DNA of 28,040 nucleotides from a virus. Taxonomy: Duplodnaviria; Heunggongvirae; Uroviricota; Caudoviricetes. Made by a program: the position numbers and the translations under genes. Location: positions 1 through 28,040 of the IMG/VR virus record IMGVR_UViG_2778261689_000008; one strand, 5' to 3'. Below the pieces are notes generated by a model. That model was not told the DNA's origin. It did not search any database and was given only the letters and a program-made list of their open reading frames with translations. This document shows positions 1 through 20,843 of this stretch, piece after piece (position 1 is the stretch's first letter; every line of letters starts with the position of its first letter).

Positions 1-489
1 TCAAATCAAGCATCGCACTCTGAAGCAAGTAGCCATCTGCCTGCTTCCTTTGATCTGCGAGAAGTTTGTGGCAGTGATCACCAATCCCCCCTGTGCGCGA
101 GCAGCTTTCAGTCCAGCTTTTGTTCGTTCAACAATCAGTTCACGCTCCATTTCAGCCAGGGCACCCATCACATGAAAGAAAAAGCGTCCCATTGAGGTAC
201 TGGTATCAATTGAATCCGTCAGACTACGAAAGTTGATGCCTCGTTCGCGCAACTCCTCCACCAGCACGACAAGATGCCGCATACTGCGCCCCAGTCGGTC
301 CAGTTTCCAGACCACCAGCGTATCGCCTGCCGATAATGTCCTGAGCAGTTTTTTCAGTCCCGGCCTGTCGGACTTCGTGCCGCTGATTTTGTCCTCAAAA
401 ATCAGCTCACATCCTGCGCACTCCAGCACATTACGCTGCAATTCCGTGTTCTGGTCATTTGTTGACACGCGTACATAGCCAATAAGCAT
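1..489 (-). CDS. pin: Serine-recombinase DNA invertase (Pin/Gin/Hin family); catalytic domain intact, C-terminal DNA-binding region apparently out of frame
   Basis: Track ORF 1-534 reads MLIGYVRVSTNDQ...VVWKLDRLGRS...GALAEMEREL, the catalytic core of resolvase/invertase enzymes. Start trimmed to the ATG at 487-489 (GGGGGA 6 nt upstream). After ...KAARAQGG the frame gives an unrelated tail and stops at bases 1-3; the neighbouring frame reads IGDHCHKLLADQRKQADGYLLQ, which resembles the invertase HTH region as I recall it. Confidence 0.8.
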   Translation of the reverse strand: MLIGYVRVSTNDQNTELQRNVLECAGCELIFEDKISGTKSDRPGLKKLLRTLSAGDTLVVWKLDRLGRSMRHLVVLVEELRERGINFRSLTDSIDTSTSMGRFFFHVMGALAEMERELIVERTKAGLKAARAQGGLVITATNFSQIKGSRQMATCFRVRCLI

Positions 490-546
490 GAGCATCCCCC
501 TGAATAAAAACCGGAGATGATGCCAGTTAGCCATAATCTCTGCATT

Positions 547-570
547 TTCTTAAACGTTGGTTTGGGAGAA
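547..570. other. Invertase crossover site, left copy (imperfect palindrome ttcttaaacgttggtttgggagaa)
   Basis: Its reverse complement matches 2336-2359 at 19 of 24 positions in inverted orientation; both copies encode N-(V/L)-G-L-G-E in frame within the tail-fibre reading frames. Confidence 0.6.
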
Positions 571-915
571 GCGGCTAAAAGAAATGTAGGGACCGGCACC
601 AATCAAATTCCTGACATGTCTAGCTTTACAAGTGGAAATGGCTGGTGTCGTTACCCTGATGGAACTATCTTTCAACGTGGTGTTTCAGTGGCAGGAGCGA
701 TTGGATCTCCCACTTTTATAAATTTCCCCATTGCATTTACCAACTACTCAACCGTGCAAATTGTTGTGTCGTATGATAATGCGGAATCTTCAGTAAATTC
801 AATTCCTTCTTTTGCTGCTACACCCGTTAGTACCGGTCTTGGTTTTAGCTTAATGGGTTCCCAGCCATCAGGTAGCAATACAACTTATTGTCGATGGATA
901 GCTATAGGTAAATAA
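547..915 (+). CDS. Silent alternative tail-fibre C-terminal cassette (would be fused to the constant N-terminus after inversion)
   Basis: Track ORF 517-915 on the opposite strand to the expressed fibre; shares the GLGE junction motif at the crossover site; no convincing own start or RBS. Confidence 0.55.
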   Translation, partial: FLNVGLGEAAKRNVGTGTNQIPDMSSFTSGNGWCRYPDGTIFQRGVSVAGAIGSPTFINFPIAFTNYSTVQIVVSYDNAESSVNSIPSFAATPVSTGLGFSLMGSQPSGSNTTYCRWIAIGK

Positions 916-916
916 A

Positions 917-1360
917 ATGAAAAAATATGTGTACAGTGCAATAAATAACGCTTTCTATCCAACATCAATGAAAGAAGATTATATTTCTGGAAATTGCTGG
1001 CCTACTGATGGTGTTGAATGTGACGAAGATATATTTACAGAATATACAAAGGAACCGCCAACTGGGAAGGTCCGCATCGCTGGAAAAGATGGTTATCCGG
1101 AATGGGGTGAACTACCAGCACTAACTCATGATGAGCAGGTAGCAGCAGCAGAACGCAAGAGGCAGATTCTTATTGAACAGGCCAACTCTAACATGAACAG
1201 CAAGCAATGGCCTGGAAAAGCGGCTATTGGTCGTCTGAAAGGTGAGGAACTGGCGCAATATAATTTGTGGCTGGATTACCTGGACGCACTGGAGCTGGTT
1301 GATACCTCCAGTGTGCCAGATATTGAATGGCCTACGCCTCCGGCAGTTCAGGCCAGATGA
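917..1360 (+). CDS. Tail fibre assembly (chaperone) protein, alternative copy
   Basis: 147 aa; C-terminus LVDTSSVPDIEWPTPP parallels the C-terminus of the minus-strand Tfa (TATDTSTAPDVIWPELP); immediately follows the silent fibre cassette. Confidence 0.75.
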   Translation: MKKYVYSAINNAFYPTSMKEDYISGNCWPTDGVECDEDIFTEYTKEPPTGKVRIAGKDGYPEWGELPALTHDEQVAAAERKRQILIEQANSNMNSKQWPGKAAIGRLKGEELAQYNLWLDYLDALELVDTSSVPDIEWPTPPAVQAR

Positions 1361-1934
1361 CATCCGGCGCTGTGCTGGTATCTGTTGCCGTCACCGCGTC
1401 AATGTAATCCAGCACAGTGTTAAGTCGGGTGGTCTCTGCCTGCATCAGCTTCCGCCCGGCCTGCAATTTAAGTTGAATCAGACTAATGGAAGCCATTGCA
1501 GTATTAATCAGTGACTGACGCTGTACTTCTGCCGCGTCTACTGCGGCGCTATGCTGTGCCTCAGTATCGGTCACCCATTTCTTACCATCCCATTTATCGA
1601 ATGGCGTTAACGGGGTGATAGTGGTTGTATTTTCAGGATAATCACCCGGAGCTGTGATTTCTTTGGCGTCTCCCGTTTCGGTGTTATAGACGATTTCACC
1701 GCGATGGTCTGGCACATATTCCCATGAGTTTAAATCCATCGAACGGCAGATAGCATAACCCGCCTTATGTGTGCCAGGGGCATCTAAACAGGAATATGCA
1801 GGGATACCGACACCAATGGCAAGATATTCATTTGAAGTGGAAATATATTCCCGAGTTTCACCATCATAGTTATAGACGGTAATATTCCCCGCCTTCGTGG
1901 CAATAAGCTCGCTATTTAATACGGCGTTATCCAT
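1332..1934 (-). CDS. Tail fibre assembly (chaperone) protein, currently expressed orientation
   Basis: 200 aa directly downstream of the tail-fibre gene; conserved Tfa-type C-terminal motif; convergent 29-bp overlap with the plus-strand copy. Confidence 0.8.
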   Translation of the reverse strand: MDNAVLNSELIATKAGNITVYNYDGETREYISTSNEYLAIGVGIPAYSCLDAPGTHKAGYAICRSMDLNSWEYVPDHRGEIVYNTETGDAKEITAPGDYPENTTTITPLTPFDKWDGKKWVTDTEAQHSAAVDAAEVQRQSLINTAMASISLIQLKLQAGRKLMQAETTRLNTVLDYIDAVTATDTSTAPDVIWPELPEA

Positions 1935-2638
1935 TATGCAGCCCTCACGATAAAGTTAAATGCAATATTTCGTGGACGGGTTTCACTCCCGCCATATGAT
2001 GATGTAAATCCCGAATATGCCCGGTGTCCCGCATCCGTCGTATTAGCCCAGGAAGGACCGCTAGAAGTATAGATGGCCCCATTGTAATCATGGCCGTGTG
2101 CCTCAATGCTCCCGTCCTGAGCAGACAGGAGAGTCCGTCCTGAATCAATTCCTCTTCCATCATCCCACCCACGAATGAATTCGCCGCGTAAATCTGGCAA
2201 TTTATTTGTCGGATAAACTTTTGCCAGTTCCGGATACTCTTCGGCAGAAAAAGCTGCACCGTTGCATTTCAGCCAGCCTGTTGGCGGTGTGACTGAAGGC
2301 CACGGAACAGGCACACCTACGGGTAATGCAGAGCCTTCTCCCAAACCAAGGTTTTCGAGAGCCGTTTGCACAGTGCCATCCGATTTGATATCGCCAAACG
2401 GATTCTTGCGGCTTAACAGCAGCGCGCGAAGTGCGGTAAGCAACTGATCGTGCCGCCCCTTCTCCAGGCTGGCACCGGATGCCTCCACCACGCTGCAAAG
2501 CTCCTCCTGCAACATGTCAAAGTAGTCATCATCCAGATCGGTGGCAGGCGTGCCAGTCTGGGGGTTACCACGGGTAAAACCGTTCTTACCCGCGCCGAAC
2601 TTATCCTTCTGCGCGGTTTTCGTGTCTATACGATGCAT
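1934..2638 (-). CDS. Tail fibre protein: constant N-terminal part (about 2348-2638) plus invertible C-terminal part (1934 to about 2347)
   Basis: 234 aa; follows the baseplate genes; glycine-rich C-terminal domain; crossover site embedded at the ENLGLGE codons. Confidence 0.75.
2336..2359. other. Invertase crossover site, right copy (ttctcccaaaccaaggttttcgag)
   Basis: Inverted partner of 547-570; lies inside the tail-fibre coding sequence at the constant/variable junction. Confidence 0.6.
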
Positions 2639-2641
2639 GGA

Positions 2642-3226
2642 TTACTCCGGATATTTAAAAATTACGTAGGTATGCGACGGGCAGAGTTTGTTAAGCACAC
2701 ACTCGACAACGGTGTCGCCCCAGATACGCAGTGCGGAATCACAGGGATCGCCACATGTCATCCAGGTGGTGTTGGTGGTGGTTGGCATGTTGACCTGCCA
2801 GTAATACCGCCATTCCGGCGCATTCACCGCGTCAGTACAGGCCGATGAGCAGGTGAACGTGCTTTTGTCGTATCGCGTGATGGTGGCGTCTGGTCTGCCC
2901 AGGGCAGCAAGCTGTGCAAGGTAAAAATCCTCATTGATGCCGCCCGCTAGGTTAACCTTCGCATCCAGCCGTTGCTGACGCTGGCGAAGGGTCTGCGTCC
3001 CTGCGGGAATACATTCATCCGGCAGGCCGCACAGACGCTCCCAGCGATTTATCAGTTCAGTGGTGGTACGCGGATCCAGCTCCCGCATCAGGGCATCCGC
3101 ACGCTGATGAACACGGGTTAATGACGGTGCCGCACCGGCAATCGCCGGATCGCTGGCTGACCATGCCGGACCGGGCGGCAACAGTGCCGATAACAGGCGG
3201 ATGTAATCATCGTTTGTCACGTCCAT
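2642..3226 (-). CDS. Mu gp48-like tail/baseplate protein (YmfQ-like)
   Basis: 194 aa between baseplate J and the tail fibre, the position and size of Mu gp48 / e14 YmfQ. Confidence 0.65.
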
Positions 3227-4275
3227 GAAATCGTCCCCAGAACCGCCAGTTCATTTTTCGCAATGGAGATATTGTCTGCCGGTGCAAGCAACTGATGGCT
3301 ATATTCCCCGTTCGCACCGGAAATCGCCTCACTGATACGCGATACCTTCAGTTCTCCCTGCGGATAACCATCACGCAGAAGAAACGAACGCAACTCCGCG
3401 GTGATGGCGGCTCGTATTTCTGGTGTGTCCGGCGTCACGCGGATATGAAAATCCACCGTATGTGCCACCGGCCTGAATACATACAAATCAGAGCCTGCCA
3501 CCGGGGCCAGTGGCACGATATGTTGTCTTGCTGCCGTTTCCGTTGATTCTTCCGGAATGGGATTAATCAGGTCACTGCTGGCAATCATCACACCGACAGT
3601 TCCCGTTCCCATCCAGTGACGGTATGTCCATGCGCGGGTAATGCCGGGCACTTCTTTAGCCCAGACGACATAGTCCCCGTCAGCCCCGCCCTGAGGCGTC
3701 CAGTAATACCGCTCAATGACGCGGGCGCGCCACGTTTCCAGCTCTTCAGTATCAAATCCGCCTGTAAGGGTGTCAGCCACACCGGAAGACGGCAGACCAT
3801 TCACCGGCGTGACCAGGATTAATGCCGTACCGTCGTCAGCGTTACCGACCGCACCTGCACTTGAGCAGGCGATCGGCACGCGCAGGACACCACCGGAGCT
3901 GGTTGCATCGGCAGTTGCCGTGTACTGAACCAGGTCATCGCGCTGAATAACACTCCCGGCGGTCACCTTCAGGCCATCGCTGACACCTTCCCAGCGCATA
4001 TACCCGCTGGCAGCCGTGGCCCCCTTGCGCGGACACCGTTTCATCGCAGCATGTCGCGCCAGCCAGGACTCATCGCACAGGTCAGGCAGCATGTTCATTG
4101 CCAGATAATCGATGTAACCGTAAACCGTATGCAGCGCCGCCGCATACACCTTTGCCCGCACGTCTTCATCCATGCGCCGGAGCGTGTCGCTGACGTCCAG
4201 CCTGGCGAATAAATCGTTACGGAGCATACTGATATTTTCTGCCAGCGTCGGGCGCTGAAATTCACTGTCCGCCAT
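3217..4275 (-). CDS. Baseplate J-like protein (Mu gp47-like)
   Basis: 352 aa; position in the Mu-like baseplate gene order; overlapping start/stop with neighbours. Confidence 0.7.
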
Positions 4276-4690
4276 GCGTTATCGCACTCCACAGATCATC
4301 AAAAGAAATCATTACCGGTCCGTCACGACGCCAGAGAGTGATACTGTTACCCAGTTCATTAATCCCGGTGCGGCGGATATCCAGATCAATACGGGACACC
4401 ACGCCGTCATCAATCATCCATTGCAGGCATTCGCGGATATACCCCCTTACCGTCTGCACCAGCTGATTGGTCAGTTTGCTGCGCTGAAGCAGCCACAGTC
4501 GGGAGCCGTAACGGTCATTCTGTACCGCAGGCCAGGTATCCCCCCACCATCCCATCGGGACGTCGGCGTTGTCATCAGGCTCCGCCCGCCGCCAGGTAAA
4601 CAGGGAAATCACCACGGCGCGGGTCAGCGGATCCAGTTGTGCGCTGGCGCAGGTGCGTTTACCGTTCACCGTCAGCCACAGTTCCATCAT
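4262..4690 (-). CDS. Baseplate wedge protein, gpW/GP46-like
   Basis: 142 aa between the gpV-like and J-like genes. Confidence 0.6.
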   Translation of the reverse strand: MMELWLTVNGKRTCASAQLDPLTRAVVISLFTWRRAEPDDNADVPMGWWGDTWPAVQNDRYGSRLWLLQRSKLTNQLVQTVRGYIRECLQWMIDDGVVSRIDLDIRRTGINELGNSITLWRRDGPVMISFDDLWSAITHGGQ

Positions 4691-5235
4691 GCCTCCATCG
4701 CTTTATCAGGTTTGTCGGTGTTACTGCCCTGACCGTTCTCTCTGTGACGATGCCCGTTATAGGCAAGCCGCATCGCTGACATGGTGGTGCCGGTGGAGTC
4801 GCACAGGTCTTTCACCTGTCCGGTCACTTCCAGGTCCATTTCAAAACGTGCCTTAGGCGCATTGCGAAACGTGATCGTTTTACCTGCACCGTCCACCACG
4901 ATCCCCTCCCGGGCCAGCGTCACGGACTGCCCCTGATCGTCATAGACAGCCACCTCACCCGTCTGCAGCCCTTTCAGGCGGTAGCGCCGGTCCGACACCG
5001 TAACAACCACCGCATGAGAACGGTCGCCATCCGGAAACAACACCACCGCTTCCGCACCGCTGTTTGCCCTTGCGGTAAAACCGTAGGGTTCAAGATGTTC
5101 AACCCCGGCTTTGGGTTCACCGGCAATCAGGGACACATCCACGGTCTGACATTTCGTGGCGGCACTGATGCTTTTCACCACTGCCCGCCCAATCAGGCCG
5201 AGGAGTTGTCGCTGCATGGCTTCAATCGTCCTCAT
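4687..5235 (-). CDS. Baseplate assembly/spike protein, gpV-like (Mu gp45-like)
   Basis: 182 aa; position after the hub protein. Confidence 0.65.
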   Translation of the reverse strand: MRTIEAMQRQLLGLIGRAVVKSISAATKCQTVDVSLIAGEPKAGVEHLEPYGFTARANSGAEAVVLFPDGDRSHAVVVTVSDRRYRLKGLQTGEVAVYDDQGQSVTLAREGIVVDGAGKTITFRNAPKARFEMDLEVTGQVKDLCDSTGTTMSAMRLAYNGHRHRENGQGSNTDKPDKAMEA

Positions 5236-6314
5236 CAGAACGGGTCCTCCTGTACTCTGGCTTTTTTCTTTTTCCGCGCGCCGGGGGCTTCGGGTTCAGG
5301 CAGATAAGCATCAGGTGGGCCGACACGGATTTCCGTCATGGTGCCGTTCTGGTCCTGAGTGAACGTGACTTCCGAGACAAGCAGTTCGGTATTGTCGAAA
5401 CCACAGACCGGATCGAAGACAATCACCCGCTGGTTGGGCTGCCACAGCGTACCGTTACCCTGTCGCCAGCCCTGCACCAAATAGGTGGTTTCATCCGTCC
5501 GCGCCGCCCGTTGTCGGGCTTCAAAGTCAGCACGCGCAATACAGCCTGCCCCCGTGGCCTGCCCTGTCTGCCTGATATACATCGGACGGTAACGGGCAAT
5601 AAATGCGTCCTCTGTGCGGGCCCGCAGCGCGGTGGTGGTGGCCTCACCGAAATCATCGTCGTTCCCGGCACGCTGCCCCGCCACCTGGTAAACAGAAAAT
5701 CGCTCCCGGATACTCTTCTCCGTATCGCAGGAAAGGATGTTTTCCCCGAGTACCAGCGTAGTATGTGCCCGCGTTGAGCCAATACCGCCAATCACCAGCC
5801 TGCCGTGCGGGTCGTCGTAAGCCAGTGCCTGCTGCTGACCGAGTATTTTGTTGATTACCTCAATCACCGTTTCACCGTGATCAGGCTGAACATCAGGAAT
5901 AACACCCGACGGCGCACCGCTGTTCACCACCTCAATGCCGAAAGGCGCAGCAAGCGCCTGCGCAATCTGCACCAGCGAGCGCCCGTTAAACTGTGTCGGT
6001 TCGGCTGCACAGTCAATCAGGTCAGCCGTCAGACTACGTCCGGCAATACCGGTGCTGACCGAACGGGCATCGTAACGAACGGGAGTCGCCTCCACCCAGC
6101 CGGTGATCACCAGCTCATCACCAATCAGCACTTCCACTTTTGAACCGTTTTTAATGCGCGGCTGAAGCGTGGTGATACCCTCATCTCCCGGCCACTGGCG
6201 AGTGATCTCCACACTGAAATCCCGCGCCAGCCGTTCAATACCGGCACCGATGCGCACCGATGTCCAGCCATTCCACTCCTGGCCATTTACCCGTAGCGTG
6301 ACATTGTCGTTCAT
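5235..6314 (-). CDS. Baseplate hub protein (Mu gp44/P-like, late-control-D-like)
   Basis: 359 aa; follows the DNA-circulation-like gene as in Mu-type tails. Confidence 0.65.
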   Translation of the reverse strand: MNDNVTLRVNGQEWNGWTSVRIGAGIERLARDFSVEITRQWPGDEGITTLQPRIKNGSKVEVLIGDELVITGWVEATPVRYDARSVSTGIAGRSLTADLIDCAAEPTQFNGRSLVQIAQALAAPFGIEVVNSGAPSGVIPDVQPDHGETVIEVINKILGQQQALAYDDPHGRLVIGGIGSTRAHTTLVLGENILSCDTEKSIRERFSVYQVAGQRAGNDDDFGEATTTALRARTEDAFIARYRPMYIRQTGQATGAGCIARADFEARQRAARTDETTYLVQGWRQGNGTLWQPNQRVIVFDPVCGFDNTELLVSEVTFTQDQNGTMTEIRVGPPDAYLPEPEAPGARKKKKARVQEDPF

Positions 6315-7687
6315 TGCACTGGCACCTTCAGAGGGATCACCGGCACAAAGCCGGGATGCGTAATGGCATTACGCCGGATAATGTCCGCGTCACGCGCCGC
6401 GTTATCAAACCAGGTCGCCGCCAGCACCAGCGCGGGTAAAACCTCATCCGGTGTGCGCCGAATGATCCGTGCAGACTGTTTAAGGCGCGTGTTGATATCC
6501 GCATTCAGATCTGCTTTCACCCGGCGCAGCGCCAGAAACAGCGCATCACTGGTTGTACGGGACAACTCCTTATCAATTGCCGTATTCAGTGTGTCGCGAA
6601 TGTCAGTCAGTTCTTCCCACGTCGGCAGGTCAACCGTGTTTTTCACCGCCGGTGCATTGTTCAGTGCCGGATGCGTGACGGAAGGCCAGCCAGTGCTCTG
6701 CGCAGGTGTTGTTGCCTGCCCCACTGCGGAATTCTGCATCACCGCGGAAGTTGTTGGCGCAGGCAATCGGGTGACGGCATACGCCGCTTCACTGATTGCG
6801 GTCGTACGAAGGGTGCTGGCAACCACATTACGCTGCTGCGTAGCCGTGGCGGTGGTTTTACTGTCCGTTTTCCAGACGCCGCGCGGTTGCAGATCGCTGC
6901 CGAGGCTGACACCGGAAAGCGTTTTGATCATGGTGACCAGGTCGCTGGCGTTACCATAAAGGCGTTTCCCGGTACGCCACATTTTCTGCACCTGCTCAAC
7001 GAGATTTTTGCCTGACGATGGTGGCGGCAGAAGTACCGAGATATCCCCCTGCAACAGCCTGGCAGCATCCGATACGGCAGAATCCACCACTTTCATCGCA
7101 TCTGAAACATACCCAAGCATTGTGCTGACATTACCAACGACGTCGTTCTGCACGAAATCCGCCACGCCATCGATACTGAAACCTCTGAAGCTGTCACTGA
7201 TGCAGTCATCCAGTGCAGAACAGGATGACATCAGCGTCTGCGCCGTCGCCGCACCTGAAGTGGGGTAAGAGAGTTCTCCCGCTTCGACAAACTTCAGGTC
7301 AAAGCGGACAATACGCCCTTCACTCTTCGATGTGCTGACCCGAACTTCTCCGTCAACACAGACTTTCAGCTCACCGTATGTCGGATGGACAAGCGTGCCG
7401 GGACCGGGTTTATTCAGCGCGTCAATCAGGCGATCGCGCTGGTCAAAGCAGTCATCTCCCACCACATAAGCCGTGATGGACGGGCGAAAAGTGATTTTCC
7501 CCAGGTCTTCGGTATAGGGTTTGTCGCGGTTCGGGTATTCATGTGTTTCCACACGGCGACCGGTTCCCGCACTTTCTTCTTCAACCTTAAACGGCACGCC
7601 GCGAAATGACGCGTCCTGAAGTCTGTCACGCCAGCCTGAAGACGACGAAAGTAATGAAGGTCGGGTGGGAAATGAGGATAAATCCAT
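6311..7687 (-). CDS. Mu gp43 (N)-like DNA circulation protein
   Basis: 458 aa immediately downstream of the tape measure; N-terminal W-x-D-x-L...ASFRGVPF motif. Confidence 0.6.
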   Translation of the reverse strand: MDLSSFPTRPSLLSSSSGWRDRLQDASFRGVPFKVEEESAGTGRRVETHEYPNRDKPYTEDLGKITFRPSITAYVVGDDCFDQRDRLIDALNKPGPGTLVHPTYGELKVCVDGEVRVSTSKSEGRIVRFDLKFVEAGELSYPTSGAATAQTLMSSCSALDDCISDSFRGFSIDGVADFVQNDVVGNVSTMLGYVSDAMKVVDSAVSDAARLLQGDISVLLPPPSSGKNLVEQVQKMWRTGKRLYGNASDLVTMIKTLSGVSLGSDLQPRGVWKTDSKTTATATQQRNVVASTLRTTAISEAAYAVTRLPAPTTSAVMQNSAVGQATTPAQSTGWPSVTHPALNNAPAVKNTVDLPTWEELTDIRDTLNTAIDKELSRTTSDALFLALRRVKADLNADINTRLKQSARIIRRTPDEVLPALVLAATWFDNAARDADIIRRNAITHPGFVPVIPLKVPVQ

Positions 7688-7711
7688 AGACTGACCTCAA
7701 AAAGGACTGAG

Positions 7712-9619
7712 TTATCGTGGAAAACGAAAAGGGGAATACCCCACATCGTGCGTGATTTTCATCAGGGGATCGGCTTTGCCCGGTACATCAATTATCTTCA
7801 TACCTGGCGGAGCATTCTCGAACGTGACTTTCAGCTCGCTGTGCTGTGTCATGGAAGAAGATGGATTCAACAGCGGAACATTGGGTTTGTACTGACTCAG
7901 GCTGGCCTGATACTGCTCGTACTCTTTACGATCAAAAAAAGGCGTCCAGTCTGAAGCCAGAAACAGCCCTTTATTATCCAGCCAGTTAACCGTATCTTCA
8001 GGAACAACACTTTCCAGAGTATCTTTAACCGGCTCATACATCAGGGTTCCCAGAAAACCATATACCCCGGCCTTCCCGATAAAGCCGCGGCCTTTCCCCA
8101 TCAATCCCGTTTCTGCCGATACCTTCCCCAGCGTACGCATCTCTCTGGTCACTGCGGTAATGGATTTGGTAACGTCAGCAACCCATTTGGTTGCCATAAA
8201 CAGGGCAATCGCTTTCAGAACAGTTTCCCATCCCCCCATCGCCTGCGCCGTTTCATCCACCACGTGCCAGACTTTTTTTATGACAGGACCTACGGTTTCC
8301 CAGTTATCAATAATGAGGTAAGCGCCACCAACCAGAAGAGCAATCAGCCCCTTAGCAGGCGTCATATTCATCACACCGCCGAGAACTTTCATAATTCTGG
8401 ACAAAGAGCCTGCAGCGGCTCCCACCGTCAGTAAGGCCAGACCGATTTTAGCAATGGTCTTAACGAGCTCCGGGTTTTCACGGACAAACGTTCTCACTTC
8501 CTCAAGGAGCGGTTTTACCGCTTCAAGACCATCATTAACCTCAGGAAGAAACGTTTCCCCCAGCGTGGAAGAAATGGCATCAAGTTGATTTTGCAGAAGT
8601 AAAAGCTGGTTTTCCGTCGTCGCTGCCCTCGAAGCATATTCCTTCTGCATCGAACTGCCATACTGCTGGGAATCCGCAACCCGCCTGAAGTTGGTACGCA
8701 ACAAATCAAGGTTAGTCAGCAGAGGTGCTATCGCGCCCAGAGACTCTTTCCCGAACAGGGCATTCAGCACAGCTGCCTGTTTTTCTTTGGGCACTTTAGC
8801 CATCGCATCCAGTACAGACAGCATGGTTCCCCGGGCATCTTTCTGCATATCAGCAGCTAATTTCTTCGGATTGATCCGCAGAAAACGTAATGCCTGTTTC
8901 TGCGATTTTGTCGCGGAATTTCCCGCGGTCAGGGAAAGCATGAAGTTCTTGATCCCTGTGGCGGCAATTTCTGACTCCACGCCCATCCCGGCAATGGTTG
9001 CCCCCATTGCCGCGATTTCGCCGGAAGCCACACCTGCAACACCACCTAAAGGACCAATACGCGTAACAATATCGGAGATTTTCTTCGCATTCGCCGGGCC
9101 GGTATTACCAAGGTAGTTGATTTTGTCAGCCAGCCCGGCCACTTCATCCTGCGTCATATTAAACGCAGTACGCCACTGGGCCATCATCTGCCCGGACTCT
9201 TCAGCCGTGGTATCAAAGGCCACGCCCATCTTCACCGCATCAGTGGCAAACTGCATCAGTTCATCACGTGCAATCCCGGCCTGACCGCCAGCCGCCACAA
9301 TTTCCGCGATCCCGTCTGCAGACATGGGAAGCTCAGTAGACAAAGCGCGTACCTGCTCCGTCATGGCCTTAAACGCATCCGGCGTATCCAGACCGTCTAC
9401 CACTTTGCGGACATCAGCCATCTTCGATTCAAGGGTGATGGCTGATTTTACAGGGAGTGCCAGTGCCCCCATTATTGCAGTACCCGCCCCGGCAGCGCCC
9501 AGAGCAAGGCTGGAGACTTCTTTCTGAAACCCCTTAAGCTGACGCTGCATACCTTTAAGCGGGCCGGACAGCCTGTCAACGGCGGTGATGATGGCTTTCA
9601 GCTGAAAATTATCAGCCAT
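7712..9619 (-). CDS. Tail tape measure protein
   Basis: 635 aa, Ala/Gly-rich and helical with hydrophobic central segments; GAGGAG RBS before the ATG; located between chaperone and baseplate genes. Confidence 0.8.
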   Translation of the reverse strand: MADNFQLKAIITAVDRLSGPLKGMQRQLKGFQKEVSSLALGAAGAGTAIMGALALPVKSAITLESKMADVRKVVDGLDTPDAFKAMTEQVRALSTELPMSADGIAEIVAAGGQAGIARDELMQFATDAVKMGVAFDTTAEESGQMMAQWRTAFNMTQDEVAGLADKINYLGNTGPANAKKISDIVTRIGPLGGVAGVASGEIAAMGATIAGMGVESEIAATGIKNFMLSLTAGNSATKSQKQALRFLRINPKKLAADMQKDARGTMLSVLDAMAKVPKEKQAAVLNALFGKESLGAIAPLLTNLDLLRTNFRRVADSQQYGSSMQKEYASRAATTENQLLLLQNQLDAISSTLGETFLPEVNDGLEAVKPLLEEVRTFVRENPELVKTIAKIGLALLTVGAAAGSLSRIMKVLGGVMNMTPAKGLIALLVGGAYLIIDNWETVGPVIKKVWHVVDETAQAMGGWETVLKAIALFMATKWVADVTKSITAVTREMRTLGKVSAETGLMGKGRGFIGKAGVYGFLGTLMYEPVKDTLESVVPEDTVNWLDNKGLFLASDWTPFFDRKEYEQYQASLSQYKPNVPLLNPSSSMTQHSELKVTFENAPPGMKIIDVPGKADPLMKITHDVGYSPFRFPR

Positions 9620-9703
9620 GCTTCATCTCCTCATTTATACGGACGGCCTCTGCCTCCAGATCAGCAAAGTGGGAAATAGCCGTCCGGCGAAGTTCAAGGG
9701 GGT

Positions 9704-10027
9704 TTAATTTCCAGAACCACGCGACATTGTAGAATCGCTTCCGGAGGTCTCTTCCGTCTCCAAGCCGGTAAAAAAACGCATTACAATCATGCCTGCCTTG
9801 AAAATATCCAGCTTCGTCATCTGCGCTGCAGACGAGCGCGGGATCCCGGCCAGAAGCGGGATATATTTCAGCGCTACCTGACTGTCCATTTTCATACCAC
9901 CATCAGGTGAAACAGAGAAAGGGAACCCCAGCGCCTCAATCTCGTCATACGTAGGCTCACGTATTTCCAGCACATGCAGTGTTTCTTTGTGGGCGATGAT
10001 CGGTTTTTTAAGTACAAGCTCAATCAC
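9704..10027 (-). CDS. Tail assembly chaperone (Mu gp41-like)
   Basis: 107 aa between tail tube and tape measure. Confidence 0.55.
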   Translation of the reverse strand: MIELVLKKPIIAHKETLHVLEIREPTYDEIEALGFPFSVSPDGGMKMDSQVALKYIPLLAGIPRSSAAQMTKLDIFKAGMIVMRFFTGLETEETSGSDSTMSRGSGN

Positions 10028-10380
10028 TGGTAATCCCCTTCTTCACCGTGGAACTCAAGATCAACCGTGCCTTCTTCGGCATTATGGTTCGCTTCGCCGT
10101 GCAGCCAGGCAGACGACAGTACATAGACCTGACCGTTCGCCAGCTCGGCAGTGATGGTCATCTCATCAGACGAGGTGATTTTGCTCACCGGAAAATTCTT
10201 CGGCACCTTGAAGGTCCCTTTGACATAGGGCGCACGGTGAGTTTCCTTGCGGTCCACTGAACCGTCCAGGCCGATGATGTCATCATTGACCGTCCTGTTC
10301 ATGGGCACCTCAATGCCGCCGGTCAGCGATAGCTGCTGACCGTCAATTTTGAAATAACAGGTTCCCCCGATACGGGCCAT
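10024..10380 (-). CDS. Tail tube protein
   Basis: 118 aa directly after the sheath gene with a 1-bp start/stop overlap. Confidence 0.65.
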   Translation of the reverse strand: MARIGGTCYFKIDGQQLSLTGGIEVPMNRTVNDDIIGLDGSVDRKETHRAPYVKGTFKVPKNFPVSKITSSDEMTITAELANGQVYVLSSAWLHGEANHNAEEGTVDLEFHGEEGDYQ

Positions 10381-11876
10381 TATGCAGACTCCTCTGAATA
10401 CTGAAGACGGAACTGGTTAACCACGGCAAAGACACGCAACTGGTTAACATAGTCAGGCGGGAACAGCGTGTTCAGGCGGTTCGGATCGCTGGCATCACGC
10501 TCCACAACCAGGTACTGCTTAAACAGTTCGTAGTTTTCCACGATCCCCGCACGCTCAAGCTGACGGTAGGTTGCCAGCAGTTCCCCTTTGATCACCGCCG
10601 GGGTGACAATCGCCTGACCGGGACCAAAGCGGGTACCGTCACTGGCAAGCTTGTGACGCCCGTACTTACTGGTAATGACGGATTTCAGTTTGCGCAGTAC
10701 ATACGCGCTGGTATGCAGTGTCTCACTGTCGAGGTAGCTGTTATCCGCAACCCCGTAAGCGTTTTTCCTGTACGTGGTGACATCACGCTGAATGCGCAGT
10801 ACCCCGCTTTCGACATACGCCGTTGCCACGCCATGAGACAGCAGGGTCTGTTGTTCGGTCATCGTGAACCGTTTCCCCTTCGGCGCAGGCAGCATACCCA
10901 CCATCTCACCGGTCTGCGTGGGACGTGCCGGATCGTTGCGGATAAACACCGCTGCGCGGGCGGTACGGCTGGCTGCCAGCTCGTCGGCAGGCGTCTGGGT
11001 CTCTTTTTCGTACCCCGCCAGGGTGATGTGCTGCTGGTTAAACTGGTCACCTGCGTTCACCAGTTCTGACAGTGTGCCGGCCTTTGCCGTATACACATGA
11101 CCATACAGCTGACGCGCATAGCTCCAGCGACCGCTGGTATCGTTCATCTCGGTCACCAGCGTGTTAACAGAGGCCGTGTCGTTGAACGGCAGACCGATAT
11201 AATCAAACGGCTCATCCGCCATTGCAGCCACCGCGCCGGTGAGAACCGGAGCGCCCGTTCCGGCGGTCCCCGTCGCCACGGCAATCTGTACGCCCGCTGG
11301 CAGCACTTCGCCCCCACCGAAGCCGTAGTAATTGAGGCTGACAGGAATTTCATTCCCGCAAAGCCCCTTATGGCGAGCGGTCAATGTAACCACACCAGCC
11401 GAAGATGAGGCCGTAAACGGCAGGGCCGGAACGGCATTGATGGCATCTTTGATACTGCTGGCAATCGTCGCGACGTTATCGCCGTTGGTCACCGGTGCCT
11501 GCACGCGGGTACGTCCCACATAAACATTCACCGTGCCGGTTTCGGTTGCTGCCCCGGTCACCGTCAGCGTAACTGTTGCCGCCGCGCCTGTGGATTCAGG
11601 AACGGCAATCACATACAGCTCGCCAAACGGGTCGGTCTGGCGATAAGCCTCGACCATACGCGCCAGCTGACTTCCCGCACCACAAATCTGGCGTGCATAG
11701 TCTGCCGACGGCATCAGTACCAGACTGTTGGCAACAATCTCTGCACCGTTATTGGCATGACCAATCAGCAGCGATGCTCCGCTGTCCTGTGCAGTATTCG
11801 CCGCCTGGTTATCCATTTCCGCATAAAACAACGGAACCAGCGTATTCGACGGAATGGTGTTAAAGCTTATCGTCAT
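10380..11876 (-). CDS. Contractile tail sheath protein
   Basis: 498 aa; first large gene of the tail module, followed by tube and chaperone. Confidence 0.75.
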   Translation of the reverse strand: MTISFNTIPSNTLVPLFYAEMDNQAANTAQDSGASLLIGHANNGAEIVANSLVLMPSADYARQICGAGSQLARMVEAYRQTDPFGELYVIAVPESTGAAATVTLTVTGAATETGTVNVYVGRTRVQAPVTNGDNVATIASSIKDAINAVPALPFTASSSAGVVTLTARHKGLCGNEIPVSLNYYGFGGGEVLPAGVQIAVATGTAGTGAPVLTGAVAAMADEPFDYIGLPFNDTASVNTLVTEMNDTSGRWSYARQLYGHVYTAKAGTLSELVNAGDQFNQQHITLAGYEKETQTPADELAASRTARAAVFIRNDPARPTQTGEMVGMLPAPKGKRFTMTEQQTLLSHGVATAYVESGVLRIQRDVTTYRKNAYGVADNSYLDSETLHTSAYVLRKLKSVITSKYGRHKLASDGTRFGPGQAIVTPAVIKGELLATYRQLERAGIVENYELFKQYLVVERDASDPNRLNTLFPPDYVNQLRVFAVVNQFRLQYSEESA

Positions 11877-12030
11877 CGGTATTCACCTTTTTATTCACGC
11901 GCCGGATATCACCCGCTGCTTCACGGCGCAGCCAGTAGTTGTTCTCGTCAACATTTCGCCCTTCGGCGGGCAAAAGGTCGCCGCGGGCAGGGTCAGGCAC
12001 TGACCGCCCTTTAACAGGTTTGACAAACAT
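11860..12030 (-). CDS. Small 56-aa protein upstream of the sheath gene (not in the supplied track, under 60 aa)
   Basis: ATG at 12030 with GAGGA 5 nt upstream; translates MFVKPVKGRSVPDPARGDLLPAEGRNVDENNYWLRREAAGDIRRVNKKVNTDDDKL; fills the only gap in otherwise tightly packed genes and overlaps the sheath start. Confidence 0.35.
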   Translation of the reverse strand: MFVKPVKGRSVPDPARGDLLPAEGRNVDENNYWLRREAAGDIRRVNKKVNTDDDKL

Positions 12031-12038
12031 GAGGATCC

Positions 12039-12599
12039 TCAGGAAGGAAGGGTTATTTCGGTGTGATGTTCGATATCGCCGTCAGGCCCGTTACCGGGCT
12101 CGAGATAATCAACATCAATCGCCAGCGTTTGCAGTTCATCCAGACTGTTCAGATCATCCTGCTGGCGGGTATCGTCTTCAGTCAGCTCGCTGATGACCGA
12201 AAAATCGAACTGATAAATCAGCTCATGACGATTCAGATCCAGCAGCGTGCCGCCGTCATAGGTAATCGGGTTACCGCACGCTTCCGGGTTCCAGCCCAGC
12301 AGGGCCTTAAAGAGCATCTGCCGGACATCGTCCACCACATCATACGAGGCAAACTGACCGCGCTCATCACGCCCGTTACTCAGTATGACAACCACGGAGA
12401 AGCCCTCTTTCAGCTCCTGCCAGTAGTCGGTCTGGCTTTTGTTTTCTCCCGGAGAGTCATCACCCGGTACCACATACGCCGCCGGGAGTCTCAGCTTTCC
12501 GACCTCCGGCAGATTTTTGAACTGTGCCGCGCCTGCCACCCGGTTTTCAAAATACGGGCAGCGGGCACGCAGCGCAGCAATAACAGGCGTCAGTTTCAT
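12039..12599 (-). CDS. Neck/tail-completion protein of the Mu-like tail module (hypothetical)
   Basis: 186 aa, acidic; sits between the head-tail joining genes and the sheath. Confidence 0.5.
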   Translation of the reverse strand: MKLTPVIAALRARCPYFENRVAGAAQFKNLPEVGKLRLPAAYVVPGDDSPGENKSQTDYWQELKEGFSVVVILSNGRDERGQFASYDVVDDVRQMLFKALLGWNPEACGNPITYDGGTLLDLNRHELIYQFDFSVISELTEDDTRQQDDLNSLDELQTLAIDVDYLEPGNGPDGDIEHHTEITLPS

Positions 12600-13102
12600 C
12601 TGTGTCGTCGCTCCGGCTTCAGTGATTTACGCAATTCCCGCGCCAGAAAATAGCGTGTCCAGCTGCGGTTCTTTTCAAGCGCTTCCACCATGAAGTTATT
12701 ACGTGGAGCCAGTCGCCAGCCGCTGCCACCGGATGCACCACGATGATGACTACGACGACGTTTTGCTCCTCCCCGGACACCAAAAAACAGAAACGCCGGA
12801 TAGAAGTCACCAGAGATCATCCGGTTCCCCTTCCCGTTGCGCTGGTTAGGGGCAATGCGTGTCATAAAACCGGCTCGCTTTTTACTGGCTCTCGGCACCA
12901 TATAACCAATCGAACGAGCCAGGCGTCCGGTCTGATAACCGGGGTTTTCACCCGGTGCCGACCGCGCACGGCGCATCACCAGCCGACGGGCATCACGCAT
13001 ATGACGCTGCCCAATCGTGACAAACGCCCGCCGGACACGGGCGCGGTTAAAGCGCATCTCGGCGGGCTGCTGAACATCAACGTGAAAAAAGGGAGTCGCC
13101 AT
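12596..13102 (-). CDS. HK97 gp10-like head-tail joining protein
   Basis: 168 aa, very basic C-terminus; position after the head-tail adaptor. Confidence 0.55.
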   Translation of the reverse strand: MATPFFHVDVQQPAEMRFNRARVRRAFVTIGQRHMRDARRLVMRRARSAPGENPGYQTGRLARSIGYMVPRASKKRAGFMTRIAPNQRNGKGNRMISGDFYPAFLFFGVRGGAKRRRSHHRGASGGSGWRLAPRNNFMVEALEKNRSWTRYFLARELRKSLKPERRHR

Positions 13103-13487
13103 TGCTGCCTCCGTGACTCTGCCTACATTCGCCCAGCTCCGTACACTCCAGCAGCAGAAAGCGCCGCGCCCCGTTCAGATCGCGCTGACGTTTCACCCGG
13201 TACACACTGTCACCGCAGACCACCTCATAATCAGCGGTGATCCCCCGGCGGTAACGAATGGTGATGTAATGGGTGATGGCGTCCCCGGTCTGCGCGGTTT
13301 CCTGCCAGGTGGTGGCACTGGTCTGGATAACCTTCGCCCATGTCCGGAACGTAACCGGGTATTGAGGCTCCACGCCAAAGTTATCCGCGGGCATATCCAC
13401 CCGCAGGCGGATCAGGACGCGTTTATTCAGTTCACCTGGGTCCGGCAGAATGTAGGTTGCGCTGGTCTGCGCCTGACGAATTTTCAT
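13077..13487 (-). CDS. Head-tail adaptor / head closure protein
   Basis: 136 aa; position and size in the HK97-type head module. Confidence 0.6.
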   Translation of the reverse strand: MKIRQAQTSATYILPDPGELNKRVLIRLRVDMPADNFGVEPQYPVTFRTWAKVIQTSATTWQETAQTGDAITHYITIRYRRGITADYEVVCGDSVYRVKRQRDLNGARRFLLLECTELGECRQSHGGSNGDSLFSR

Positions 13488-13807
13488 TGCGGAAAGTACC
13501 TGTACGGGCCGACAAGCCAGCCAAAACTCTGCGGCATGTCGAGTTTCTCCACTTCCGTAACCGACGAGCGGTTTTCGTAAAAATGGCTGATAAGCATCAG
13601 CATCCCCAGACGAATATCATCCGGCAGGTGCAGCCCGTCCGGATCGCTCTCCGGAATGGTTTCATCCGGTGCATAGAGCTTCCGGTTCAGATACGTTTCC
13701 GTCCGCTTTTGCGCCGCACAGGCCAGCAGTTGCAGATGGCGGTCATCAGCATCGAAATCCTCATCCAGCCGGAGTTGGGCTTTAATCTCTTCCATTGTCA
13801 GAAGCAT
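13484..13807 (-). CDS. Head-tail connector (gp6-like)
   Basis: 107 aa; N-terminal MEEIKAQLRLDEDFDADD acidic helix typical of this family. Confidence 0.6.
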   Translation of the reverse strand: MLLTMEEIKAQLRLDEDFDADDRHLQLLACAAQKRTETYLNRKLYAPDETIPESDPDGLHLPDDIRLGMLMLISHFYENRSSVTEVEKLDMPQSFGWLVGPYRYFPQ

Positions 13808-13809
13808 AC

Positions 13810-14010
13810 TCAGCCCTCTTTACTGGTCGTGGCTTTTTTCTCTTTTGCCGCTTTACTGCTTTTTGCACTGATTCCGCGCTCTGCTAACCCGGCCTGAAGT
13901 GCAATCTCCTGCACCCGGGCAGGAAGCGCCCCGTCGTCATACTCACCGGCCCGAATGACCTCAACACGCATACCGTCCGGTGACCATTTCAGATCTTGTT
14001 TCAGGATCAT
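13810..14010 (-). CDS. Hypothetical 66-aa protein
   Basis: Track ORF between the capsid and connector genes; Lys-rich C-terminus. Confidence 0.4.
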   Translation of the reverse strand: MILKQDLKWSPDGMRVEVIRAGEYDDGALPARVQEIALQAGLAERGISAKSSKAAKEKKATTSKEG

Positions 14011-14031
14011 GATTCTTCACCCGTCAGAACA

Positions 14032-14053
14032 GGGGGCGCGGTTCCGCGCCCCT
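14032..14053 (-). terminator. GC-rich hairpin just downstream of the major capsid gene (terminator or RNA-stabilising stem)
   Basis: 9-bp perfect stem (ggggcgcgg / ccgcgcccc), followed on the minus strand by a weak U-rich tract (CUGUUCUG). Confidence 0.4.
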
Positions 14054-14059
14054 GAGTGA

Positions 14060-15265
14060 TTACGCCGCTGCAATCTTCAGCAGTTTGATGGCCTGCGAAT
14101 CGACCAGCATCCCGCCGGTGCGCTTGGTGGTATAAAAACCGACAAACGGTTTATTGGTGTACGGGTCCCGCAGAATGCGGGTGCCGATACGGTCAACGAT
14201 GGTGTAACCCCGTTTGAAGTTACCAAATGCAATGGCTTTCGCATCAGCGGCGATATCCGGCATCTGTTCGTTTTCAGCGATACCGTAACCCGCCAGAGAG
14301 GACGGCTGCCCCAGTTCCAGCCCCGGACGCCACAGATAGTTACCCTCGGTGTCTTTCAGCAGACGGATGGCAAACAGGCTGTTGTTGTTCATCATGAACT
14401 TCGCGCCAGTGCGGTGTGCCTTACGCAGCGTGTAAATCAGTTTGATAATGGCGTCTGCGGTCACCGCGGTCGCTTCGCCGGATACAATATGCTGAAGTTT
14501 GCCGAACGCCCGGACCTTGTCGGTTTCATCAGTGGATTCATACGCCAGGAACCCTTTCGGCTTCTTGGTGCCATCGCCTGAGGTAAAGGCAATTTCTTCC
14601 TGTTCGGCAAATTCGGTTGCCAGCTCGCTGTTGATCCAGGCCTCCACGTTGAAGAAGGCATCGTCCAGCATTTTCTGGGTAGCCTGCGGGTTGCCGTAGA
14701 TTTCCCCCATGAGAGGTTCAATCAGCTCCAGTCTGGAGGTGGCAGTCTGGGATCGCGTATCCGTTTCCCCCACCCATCCGGAAGCCGTACCGCCCAGATT
14801 CACCAGTTTTTTGTAGTCGGAACCGCCAACGGTGATCACCGTGGCTTCCTGACGCATCACCACTTCATCTTTCAGCAGGTTAAGAATGTTGCGATCCAGT
14901 TCTTCCGGCACGGCGTAGCCACCGTCTTCATCGGTACCCACCTGCAATGCCTTACGCTCCAGATCGCGCAGACCGTCTTCACGGCCTTTACGTAGAAAGC
15001 CCACAAACGCCTCTTTATGCTCGGTGGCCAGTTTATTTTGCGCTCCACCTGCCGGACGTTTCAGCTCAAGCAGCTCTTTTTCAAGGTCGCTTTTGAGATT
15101 TTCCAGCTCGCTGAGTTTCCCGTTCAGGGTTTCCACCTGCCCGGCAAGCTTGCCTTTTTCCTGCTCAATCGCATCCACGCGCTTGTCGTTCTTTGCTTTG
15201 AAGTCGTCAAACTTCTGCTGCAGCTCCTGCGCGACCTGTTCGACATCTTTAATATCAACCGCCAT
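14060..15265 (-). CDS. Major capsid protein, HK97 family
   Basis: 401 aa; N-terminal coiled-coil delta-like region (KLAGQVETLNGKLSELENLKSDLEKELLELK) followed by a capsid body; directly downstream of the protease. Confidence 0.85.
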   Translation of the reverse strand: MAVDIKDVEQVAQELQQKFDDFKAKNDKRVDAIEQEKGKLAGQVETLNGKLSELENLKSDLEKELLELKRPAGGAQNKLATEHKEAFVGFLRKGREDGLRDLERKALQVGTDEDGGYAVPEELDRNILNLLKDEVVMRQEATVITVGGSDYKKLVNLGGTASGWVGETDTRSQTATSRLELIEPLMGEIYGNPQATQKMLDDAFFNVEAWINSELATEFAEQEEIAFTSGDGTKKPKGFLAYESTDETDKVRAFGKLQHIVSGEATAVTADAIIKLIYTLRKAHRTGAKFMMNNNSLFAIRLLKDTEGNYLWRPGLELGQPSSLAGYGIAENEQMPDIAADAKAIAFGNFKRGYTIVDRIGTRILRDPYTNKPFVGFYTTKRTGGMLVDSQAIKLLKIAAA

Positions 15266-15279
15266 CGTATTTCTCCTGA

Positions 15280-17331: not shown

Positions 17332-17342
17332 AATTACCTCAG

Positions 17343-19576: not shown

Positions 19577-19606
19577 TCCTGGTTAAATTTCATTTTTCGC
19601 GGGTAT

Positions 19607-20805: not shown

Positions 20806-20843
20806 AATGCATCCATATACAAAAATCTAATGATAAGACTTTT

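Follow-up and report, generated by a model that had tools for sequence, protein, structure and literature searches.

The window, that is, the whole 28,040-nt stretch of DNA analysed here, most probably carries at its left end a tail-fibre switch of the Din family (Pin/Gin/Cin/Hin type), the orthologue of the P segment of the E. coli K-12 cryptic prophage e14, here in an SfV/SfIV-like prophage. Its adjacent invertase is dead and the segment would be invertible only in trans; we put the probability of this reading at roughly 80%. The Gin/Pin/Cin-type classification given in a preliminary description of this DNA was right, as judged from the sites, the opposed cassettes, the invertase homologue, and a flipped isomer in the genome F1005 (NZ_OY754353.1). 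The system itself is already known: the e14 P segment was reported in 1985 (Plasterk and van de Putte, as cited in PMC4272514), and RefSeq uses the labels pinE, tfaE, and ymfQ. The useful outcome here is a corrected annotation, with exact 26-bp sites, a 1,793-bp segment, two fibre isoforms, and an invertase pseudogene. For predictions of host range or phase variation in this prophage, autonomous switching should not be assumed.

Two crossover sites bracket the segment

A repeat finder run over positions 1-3200 returned as its top inverted repeat two 20-nt arms at 552-571 and 2335-2354, which are 95% complementary and lie 1,763 nt apart. When the 28-kb window was scanned with the pattern TTCTCCCAAACCAASGTTT at a tolerance of 3 mismatches, exactly two matches were obtained, at 552-570 on the minus strand and at 2336-2354 on the plus strand (chance expectation 0.01; two matches in 0 of 100 shuffles). 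Further crossover sites, as found in multi-site systems such as Min or the shufflons, were sought with the 3-mismatch pattern and with a looser core pattern, AAAC[CG]NN[CG]GTTT. Both scans gave just the same two places, and a Min- or shufflon-like multi-site inversion system was rejected.

The sites had been proposed as 24-bp elements at 547-570 and 2336-2359. The inverted pair was confirmed, whereas the 24-bp extent was not, the natural and functional unit being 26 bp. The invertase-proximal site spans 545-570 (TTTTCTTAAACG-TT-GGTTTGGGAGAA) with its core at 557-558, and the site within the fibre gene spans 2336-2361 (TTCTCCCAAACC-AA-GGTTTTCGAGAG) with its core at 2348-2349, in codon 97. Both are imperfect dyads in which 12-bp half-sites flank a 2-bp TT/AA core, with a symmetry of 8/12 and 9/12, and the two 26-bp sites are identical at 21 of 26 positions in inverted orientation. 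For the 24-mers, a recount of 547-570 against the reverse complement of 2336-2359 gave 20/24 rather than the 19/24 reported before. Alignment to the 26-bp gix and cix sites, which had been suggested as a check, revealed that the window sites share their half-site consensus (TTnTCnnAAACC-NN-GGTTTnnnAGAA); the TT/AA core is that of cix. The fibre-side site matches its counterpart inside stfP of K-12 e14 at every base, and the site at 545-570 is one base off its K-12 e14 counterpart. Both sites translate as N-[L/V]-G-L-G-E, in agreement with the in-frame N-x-G-L-G-E described earlier. Because the core has the same position within the codon in the two frames, inversion would give a fibre of either 234 or 215 aa.

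Two fibre cassettes share one constant N-terminus

The invertible segment comprises 1,793 bp between the core dinucleotides (557-2349), in keeping with the inverted alignment in F1005. It contains two opposed cassettes, each with a fibre C-terminus and a chaperone, and the ORFs and Pfam matches agree with the layout first described. In the present orientation, the expressed fibre ORF (1934-2638, minus strand) encodes 234 aa. Its constant N-terminus, codons 1-96 (2350-2638, minus strand), lies outside the segment and is 98% identical to residues 1-105 of K-12 StfP, with weak similarity to the N-terminus of the Mu fibre protein S (PDB 5yvq/8ju3, E=0.04-0.06). It starts 4 nt past the end of the gene for a YmfQ / Mu gp48-like baseplate protein (2642-3226, minus strand; Pfam Phage_Mu_Gp48, E=1e-26; 98.5% identity to K-12 YmfQ), the last gene of the Mu-like baseplate block ahead of the fibre. 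The variable C-terminus of the expressed fibre (1934-2349, minus strand; Pfam Collar, E=1.8e-14) has a phage tail collar domain with one HxH motif and an 11-residue C-terminal stretch. Its sequence matches in the PDB are the T4 gp37 fibre tip (2xgf, E=9e-17) and T4 gp12, and its identity to K-12 StfE is 62%. The chaperone of the expressed cassette (1332-1934, minus strand; 200 aa; Pfam Caudo_TAP, E=2e-31) is TfaE-like, with 87.5% identity to K-12 TfaE over 200 aa.

The silent alternative C-terminus lies on the plus strand (559-915, in a frame opening at 547). It is of the gp53-like type (Pfam PF21882, Gp53-like_C, E=3.9e-10) and only 33% identical to the StfP C-terminus. Its chaperone (917-1360, plus strand; 147 aa; Pfam Caudo_TAP, E=7e-31) is 72% identical to the C-terminal half of K-12 TfaP. 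Stops or frameshifts downstream of the junction would speak against a working switch; none were found in the silent cassette, and its reading frame is open through the junction. Inversion in silico produced an open 215-aa alternative fibre in place of the 234-aa one, each then followed by its own chaperone, which bears out the clean swap of C-termini that had been predicted. A promoter and terminator scan of positions 1-3300 gave 6 promoter-like sites against 4.0±2.0 in shuffled sequences, with nothing above expectation and no promoter in a position to drive either the silent cassette or the invertase.

The adjacent invertase gene is a pseudogene that retains a predicted enhancer

A gene homologous to Pin-type serine DNA invertases directly adjoins the site at 545-570, with transcription leading away from the segment (1-489, minus strand; Pfam Resolvase N-terminal domain, E=4e-50). 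An intact Din invertase has about 184-193 aa, with a catalytic domain and a C-terminal helix-turn-helix (HTH) domain; in the window gene, the catalytic domain is intact to codon 134 and the similarity to K-12 PinE, at 94.8% amino acid identity, covers residues 1-134 only. The intact catalytic domain and the high identity would favour a self-contained switch, in which this neighbouring invertase works and can invert the segment unaided. However, DNA alignment to intact pinE genes revealed 1-nt deletions near window positions 85/86 and 37/38, the first of which shifts the frame after codon 134. Moreover, the homology to pinE stops near position 20, at nt 472 of 555, and the 3' end with the last ~28 codons, including the DNA-recognition helix of the HTH, is lost; no Pfam match to an HTH domain was found in the remnant. 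The sequence thus contradicts a self-driven switch, which we regard as very improbable. Slippage at the G6 run at the first frameshift was also considered as a way of restoring the protein and was rejected, as the restored frame ends after about 165 aa without an HTH. RefSeq marks the same gene in 7 related genomes as 'frameshifted; incomplete; missing C-terminus'.

In serine invertases such as Hin and Gin, the C-terminal HTH confers site recognition. With two deletions and no C-terminal DNA-binding domain, the adjacent gene is, as its sequence shows, dead, so that the switch, although of the Din family by descent, cannot drive itself. The term 'complete' used for it in the preliminary description thus does not hold.

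At the DNA level, the 5' part of the gene is 71-76% identical to cin and gin. It contains a region homologous to the Fis-dependent recombinational enhancer ('sis') at 404-471 (minus strand), corresponding to gene nt 19-86; the P7 record NC_050152 annotates cin nt 19-86 as the enhancer. The predicted enhancer matches P7 at 55 of 68 nt and Mu gin at 50 of 68, compared with 40 of 64 for each in the adjoining 64 nt. The 5' part of the broken invertase gene is therefore predicted still to carry a conserved enhancer sequence.

A near-identical locus in another genome carries the segment inverted

The inverted arrangement was sought in related genomes and found in F1005, where window positions 552-2354 align inverted at 99.9% and positions 1-571 and 2335-6769 are collinear. 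The flipped copy sits in the same paoD/autotransporter/invertase-remnant locus with the same broken invertase, its breakpoints lie inside the 20-bp repeats, and the gp53-like fusion is annotated there as a CDS of 648 nt. Identity between the window and F1005 is 99.8-99.9% over a stretch that begins 3 kb left of the window and takes in the whole segment. Both orientations are thus represented in nature, and the breakpoints coincide with the sites.

The 5' invertase allele of the window (at least 99% identity) was found in only three genomes, all with the broken 3' end, and the next best match reached 95.1%. Since the allele is confined to genomes with a broken invertase, the two isomers would most simply have diverged after the invertase was lost. 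In each of these three genomes, 2-4 other pin-like loci are present, making 3 to 5 places per record.

The broken-invertase junction recurs in about 25 complete genomes, whose two orientation classes are roughly equal in size. We rejected this near-equality as proof of trans flipping, as the lineage is mosaic and homologous cassette exchange confounds the counts; the orientation argument was therefore restricted to the near-identical pair of the window and F1005. The mosaic structure is seen in 7 genomes, which have almost the same sequence in the 3' remnant and the autotransporter module but diverge by 5-8% in the invertase 5' part, indicating that homologous recombination moves cassettes. 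Such recombination could in principle have delivered the flipped segment of F1005.

This leads to an alternative in which, for want of a cis invertase, inversion has ceased in this lineage although the sites and cassettes are preserved. Either the F1005 flip would then predate the loss of the invertase, or homologous recombination would have brought it in from a phage whose invertase still worked. The invertase pseudogene and the frequent recombination in its 5' part and in the cassettes fit this account, as does the decay of the fibre gene in relatives, which has an internal stop in PSS-16 and carries an insertion of the IS66 family in strain 1409. In K-12, moreover, deletion of pinE locks the P segment in a single orientation even though native pinQ is present, and only over-produced PinQ flips it strongly (PMC12529663). 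Nevertheless, the segment lies in opposite orientations in the window and F1005, switched exactly at the 20-bp repeats and at nearly complete identity, genomes with an intact invertase lack this 5' allele, and both sites and the enhancer sequence are intact, and we consider a segment that has ceased to invert rather unlikely. The locked K-12 mutant also means that trans flipping may be rare.

Inversion in trans by another Din-family invertase is the likeliest mode that we infer for the segment. An orphan switch without its own recombinase, retaining both sites and the predicted cis enhancer, may still be flipped by the invertases of other prophages or plasmids, a possibility that we hold tentatively and at somewhat less than even odds. 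If this is true, the fibre type of this phage, or a free tip protein from the ORF at 517-915 that serves in superinfection defence like StfE2 of K-12, would be set by the other mobile elements of the host. The pair of the window lineage and F1005 suggests a small natural example of an orphaned switch that still inverts.

Comparison with known inversion systems and proposed mechanism

The closest known system is the e14 P segment of K-12, which has the same gene order as the window (ymfQ-stfP-tfaP-tfaE-stfE-pinE) and a length of 1,797 bp (PMC12529663) versus 1,793 bp. Inversion of e14 has been detected in K-12 by whole-genome sequencing and PCR (PMC4272514) and was also shown in PMC12529663. 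Several features set the window apart. Its orientation is the reverse of that in the MG1655 reference, the collar-type tip being the one expressed, and its tips are other alleles than those of e14 StfE and StfP. The window invertase is truncated and frameshifted, and whereas e14 is a 15-kb remnant, the window prophage is full length.

The G/gin system of Mu and the C/cin system of P1 and P7 have the same architecture and orientation (gin/S'/U'/U/S/gp48 in Mu, cin/Sv'/U'/U/Sv in P7). The 5' end of the invertase gene harbours the enhancer in Mu and P7, as predicted for the window, and the window fibre, like that of Mu, is carried by a Mu-type baseplate (gp45-gp48 homologues). In contrast, the window fibres are short (234 or 215 aa, versus about 500 aa or more in Mu, P1, and P7), the segment is 1.8 kb long rather than 3 kb as in Mu or 4 kb as in P7, and the invertase, unlike Gin and Cin, is defective.

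Binding of the sites, synapse formation with Fis, cleavage at the core, and subunit rotation are established for Gin, Hin, Cin, and Pin. By analogy, invertase dimers would bind both crossover sites of the window, and Fis bound to the predicted enhancer in the invertase 5' end would assemble the synapse. The DNA would then be cut at the TT/AA core, the subunits would rotate, and the ends would be rejoined. The invertase itself would come from a co-resident prophage or plasmid and act in trans, using the intact sites together with the predicted enhancer still present in cis. Such cross-prophage control has a counterpart in K-12, where PinQ, encoded by the Qin prophage, flips the e14 P segment in trans to give StfE2, which blocks T2 adsorption (PMC12529663). 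There, a segment of the same class is flipped by an invertase encoded elsewhere, which is what the window switch would need and what the window/F1005 pair fits, although the tips concerned (K-12 StfP and StfE) differ from those of the window.

The K-12 precedent of StfE2 also bears on a co-opted host function. Here, the ORF at 517-915 (132 aa), which starts outside the segment and continues into the silent cassette, would be made as a free fibre-tip protein for defence against superinfection and not for virion host range, its identity changing with the orientation. The ORF is open and is an annotated CDS in RefSeq relatives. On the other hand, the promoter scan was empty near 480-560 on the plus strand, and the GGAG motif is just 0-3 nt from two candidate ATGs. 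A role in the virion is simpler, because the prophage otherwise looks complete, with both att repeats, and we judge the co-opted function to be improbable.

The prophage belongs to the SfV/SfIV/e14 group

From the terminase through head, tail, and baseplate genes to the constant part of the fibre (2335-19634), the window is 97-98% identical to SfV, SfIV, SfII, and SfI, Shigella serotype-converting phages whose Mu-like tail is contractile. By this identity, the prophage is a member of the known SfV/SfIV/e14 group, which is lambdoid and combines an HK97-like head with a Mu-like tail. The Mu-like tail in a lambdoid prophage, as given in the preliminary description, is accordingly not unusual, being that of the known SfV/SfIV/SfII/e14 phages. 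The tRNA-Thr 3' end is repeated exactly, over 48 bp, on the far side of the autotransporter gene in PSS-16. This places the autotransporter within the prophage as cargo, with both att repeats present, and a deletion junction with host DNA was rejected as the origin of the invertase truncation.

The long alignment to SfV, SfIV, SfII, and SfI stops at position 2335, where the fibre crossover site has its outer edge. Beyond it, SfII and SfIV match the window again at 552-596, the start of the gp53-like tip, and these two phages appear to carry the gp53-like tip type.

Two inverted crossover sites bracket a tail-fibre switch

A repeat search of positions 1-3200 gave as best inverted repeat two 20-nt arms at 552-571 and 2335-2354, which are 95% complementary and spaced by 1,763 nt. 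The 19-nt pattern TTCTCCCAAACCAASGTTT, with up to 3 mismatches, matches exactly twice in the 28,040-bp window, at 552-570 and 2336-2354 on opposite strands; 0.01 matches were expected by chance, and none of 100 shuffles contained two. A looser core pattern revealed no extra crossover site in the window. The full 26-bp sites, TTTTCTTAAACG-TT-GGTTTGGGAGAA on the invertase side (545-570) and TTCTCCCAAACC-AA-GGTTTTCGAGAG inside the fibre gene (2336-2361), are imperfect dyads about a 2-bp core. Their cores are identical, and the sites are inverted relative to each other. The preliminary description counted 19 of 24 matching positions between the two 24-mers, which we correct to 20 of 24, and was right that both sites read in frame as N-[L/V]-G-L-G-E; the core codon phase is the same in both frames.

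ORF calls and Pfam matches bear out the layout described earlier of fibre, chaperone, opposed frame and second chaperone. On the minus strand, the 234-aa fibre (1934-2638, Phage Tail Collar domain) is accompanied by a 200-aa chaperone (1332-1934, Caudo_TAP). The plus strand carries the opposed open frame (547-915, Gp53-like_C) and a 147-aa chaperone (917-1360, Caudo_TAP). Inverting 557-2349 in silico produced an unbroken 215-aa fibre with its natural stop 1 base ahead of the 147-aa chaperone, in agreement with the proposed clean swap of the fibre C-terminus. The expressed tip has sequence similarity to T4 gp12 and to the T4 gp37 fibre tip, the latter in its collar region and C-terminus (PDB 2xgf, E=9e-17), and the constant N-terminus weakly resembles that of Mu fibre protein S (E about 0.04). 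Co-option of the silent tip for host defence through ORF 517-915, as for StfE2 in K-12, appears improbable: this frame is open, but a promoter scan gave no promoter signal for it and its ribosome-binding-site spacing is poor.

The chaperone genes are convergent and overlap by 29 nt at 1332-1360. Their 3' parts contain an 18-nt inverted repeat (89%; 1270-1287 and 1396-1413) and code, one on each strand, for similar C-terminal stretches (LDYLDALELVD and LDYIDAVTATD); the repeat forms a second internal inverted homology without the crossover-site pattern.

Relationship to the P segment of prophage e14

Judged by sequence, the switch and the P segment of K-12 prophage e14 are orthologues. The e14 gene order in MG1655, ymfQ-ycfK(stfP)-tfaP-tfaE-stfE-pinE, is that of the window, and the window proteins are 98.5% identical to YmfQ, 98% to StfP residues 1-105, 87.5% to TfaE and 94.8% to PinE residues 1-134. 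The fibre-gene crossover site is identical in e14, and the invertase-side site differs by 1 base. The variable tips, in contrast, are other alleles: identity to StfE is 62% for the collar-type expressed tip, and the silent gp53-like tip shares just 33% with the StfP C-terminus. The MG1655 reference has the opposite orientation to the window. The layouts of Mu (gin, S', U', U, S, gp48) and P7 (cin, Sv', U', U, Sv) are likewise those of the window, and aligning Mu gix and P7 cix with the window sites gives a common half-site pattern, which supports the assignment to the Gin/Pin/Cin type.

The adjoining invertase gene is frameshifted and truncated

The switch had been called complete, whereas its adjoining invertase is dead, with two 1-nt deletions and a lost C-terminus. 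The ORF at 1-534 on the minus strand contains the Pfam Resolvase catalytic domain, and no Pfam match to a DNA-binding domain was found in it. In a DNA alignment, the remnant is 94% identical to intact pinE genes over gene nt 1-411. A 1-nt deletion in a G run follows (window about 85/86); beyond it the remnant is poorly conserved, with a second 1-nt deletion at about 37/38, and homology to pinE stops at nt 472 of 555 (window about 20), where AT-rich DNA begins. The missing final ~28 codons, PRQKVAIIYDVG(V/I)STLYK(R/K)F... in PinE, make up the recognition part of the helix-turn-helix. Correcting the first frameshift would not rescue the protein, which would still end after about 165 aa. In each of the seven related genomes that we inspected, RefSeq labels this gene 'frameshifted; incomplete; missing C-terminus'.

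Serine invertases recognize their sites through the C-terminal domain, as established for Hin and Gin. Because this domain is missing, the remnant cannot drive inversion. An autonomous switch is contradicted by the sequence and is hardly credible. The remnant does keep a putative enhancer region. The P7 record annotates nt 19-86 of cin as enhancer, and over this 68-nt stretch the window matches P7 at 55 and Mu gin at 50 positions, compared with 40 of the next 64 nt for each.

Both orientations occur in nature

We built both predicted post-inversion junctions and searched them in 5,426 complete E. coli genomes. The isolate F1005 (NZ_OY754353.1) contains the two flipped junctions side by side (99.0% and 99.8% identity). 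Its alignment to the window is collinear over 1-571 (99.65%), inverted over 552-2354 (99.89%) and collinear again over 2335-6769 (98.0%), the blocks overlapping only in the two 20-bp repeats. The chromosomal locus (paoD, LysR fragment, autotransporter) and the broken invertase are the same. The preliminary description had made the switch depend on an inverted arrangement in related genomes, and F1005 carries this flipped isomer. Both isomers therefore occur in nature.

A frozen relic, with F1005 explained by recombination and not by inversion, is the more serious alternative, and we consider it rather unlikely. Homologous recombination does exchange modules here, since seven genomes have essentially the same autotransporter, intergenic region and invertase 3' remnant, yet four of them (PSS-11, 160-11H1, LR-50 and HKUOPY1) deviate from the window at 22-31 of 401 nt (5-8%) in the invertase 5' part. 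However, the window and F1005 are near-identical, and there is no donor with an intact invertase. Apart from PSS-16, 1409 and F1005, which all have the broken 3' end, no genome carries the 5' allele of the window at 99% identity or more; the next-best match among 5,294 matching records is 95.1%. On the simplest view, one isomer thus gave rise to the other in a background lacking a functional cis invertase.

The junction of autotransporter gene and invertase remnant is found in about 25 complete genomes. According to their annotation, the gp53-like and the collar-type cassette each stand beside the remnant in about half of them (LR-50 and HKUOPY1 were checked). We rejected this split as proof of flipping in trans, as the lineage is mosaic.

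Candidate trans-acting invertases are present, since PSS-16, 1409 and F1005 contain 3, 5 and 3 pin-like places, respectively. Such flipping has a published precedent, as the e14 P segment has been reported to be inverted by PinQ of prophage Qin (PMC12529663). Flipping in trans may be rare, because the P segment remained locked in a pinE deletion mutant with native pinQ (PMC12529663). Sequencing and PCR have documented that the e14 segment inverts in ordinary K-12 cultures (PMC4272514).

As read from the sequence, the locus combines inverted 26-bp sites, two complete cassettes in opposed orientation, a fibre gene divided by one of the sites, a conserved putative enhancer region and a dead cis invertase. 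In the Gin, Hin, Cin and Pin systems, invertase dimers occupy the two sites and Fis the enhancer to build the synapse; the core dinucleotide is cut, the subunits rotate 180 degrees and the ends are rejoined. Here, the enzyme would come from another element in the cell. One orientation would join the constant 96 codons to the collar-type tip, with its TfaE-like chaperone, and the other to the gp53-like tip, with its own 147-aa chaperone; the tips may differ in receptor specificity. The switch system is already known and its genes are named in RefSeq relatives, to which an orphaned switch with a natural isomer pair is a minor but tidy addition.

In closely related O157:H7 strains with annotated pinE (e.g., NZ_CP066748.1 and NZ_CP066753.1, both near 4.4 Mb), some search results match the window-type arrangement and others the flipped junction, with the invertase beside the collar-type tip. 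From hit tables alone, this suggests both isomers of a homologous switch within the clone.

Prophage context and neighbouring variation

The window is an E. coli prophage. Among complete genomes, strain PSS-16 comes closest (99.9% identity over 1-2700) but is not the same strain, as 37 differences occur in the first 6.7 kb. Its prophage, integrated at tRNA-Thr beside proA, is annotated with lambda-type early, replication and lysis genes (Q, P, Bet/Exo/Gam, S24 repressor), an HK97-type head and a Mu-type contractile tail and baseplate (sheath, tube, DNA circularisation protein, V, gp46, J/gp47, YmfQ/gp48). This gene content agrees with the Mu-like tail in a lambdoid prophage noted earlier, a combination that belongs to the known SfV/e14 group, since 2335-19634 shares 97-98% identity with Shigella phages SfIV, SfII, SfI and SfV. 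This long identity ends where the fibre crossover site has its outer edge, at 2335, so the site coincides with a mosaic module boundary. A further match to SfII and SfIV covers 552-596, where the gp53-like tip starts.

The whole PSS-16 element (NZ_AP027713.1) lies between two exact 48-bp direct copies of the 3' end of tRNA-Thr (extracts L001, 1175-1222, and L003, 32119-32166). The 2.2-kb autotransporter gene (L001 1669-3870), which ends 131 nt left of window position 1, is therefore terminal cargo inside the prophage, abutting the truncated invertase.

The closest relatives show a decaying fibre gene. That of PSS-16 is annotated with an internal stop, and the window copy is intact; one of the 3 base differences over 1-2700 lies in this gene at 2461 (T in the window, A in PSS-16). 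In strain 1409, identity to the window stops within the gene at ~1986, followed by an ISCro1 (IS66-family) element (extract L002, 5986-8632).

The window also differs from PSS-16 at 20150-20860, where PSS-16 carries iss, annotated as encoding the increased serum survival lipoprotein, flanked by the HNH endonuclease and Rz genes. No iss-sized plus-strand ORF is present in this interval of the window, which has instead a 124-aa ORF at 20431-20805 on the minus strand; the difference looks like a moron-slot polymorphism.
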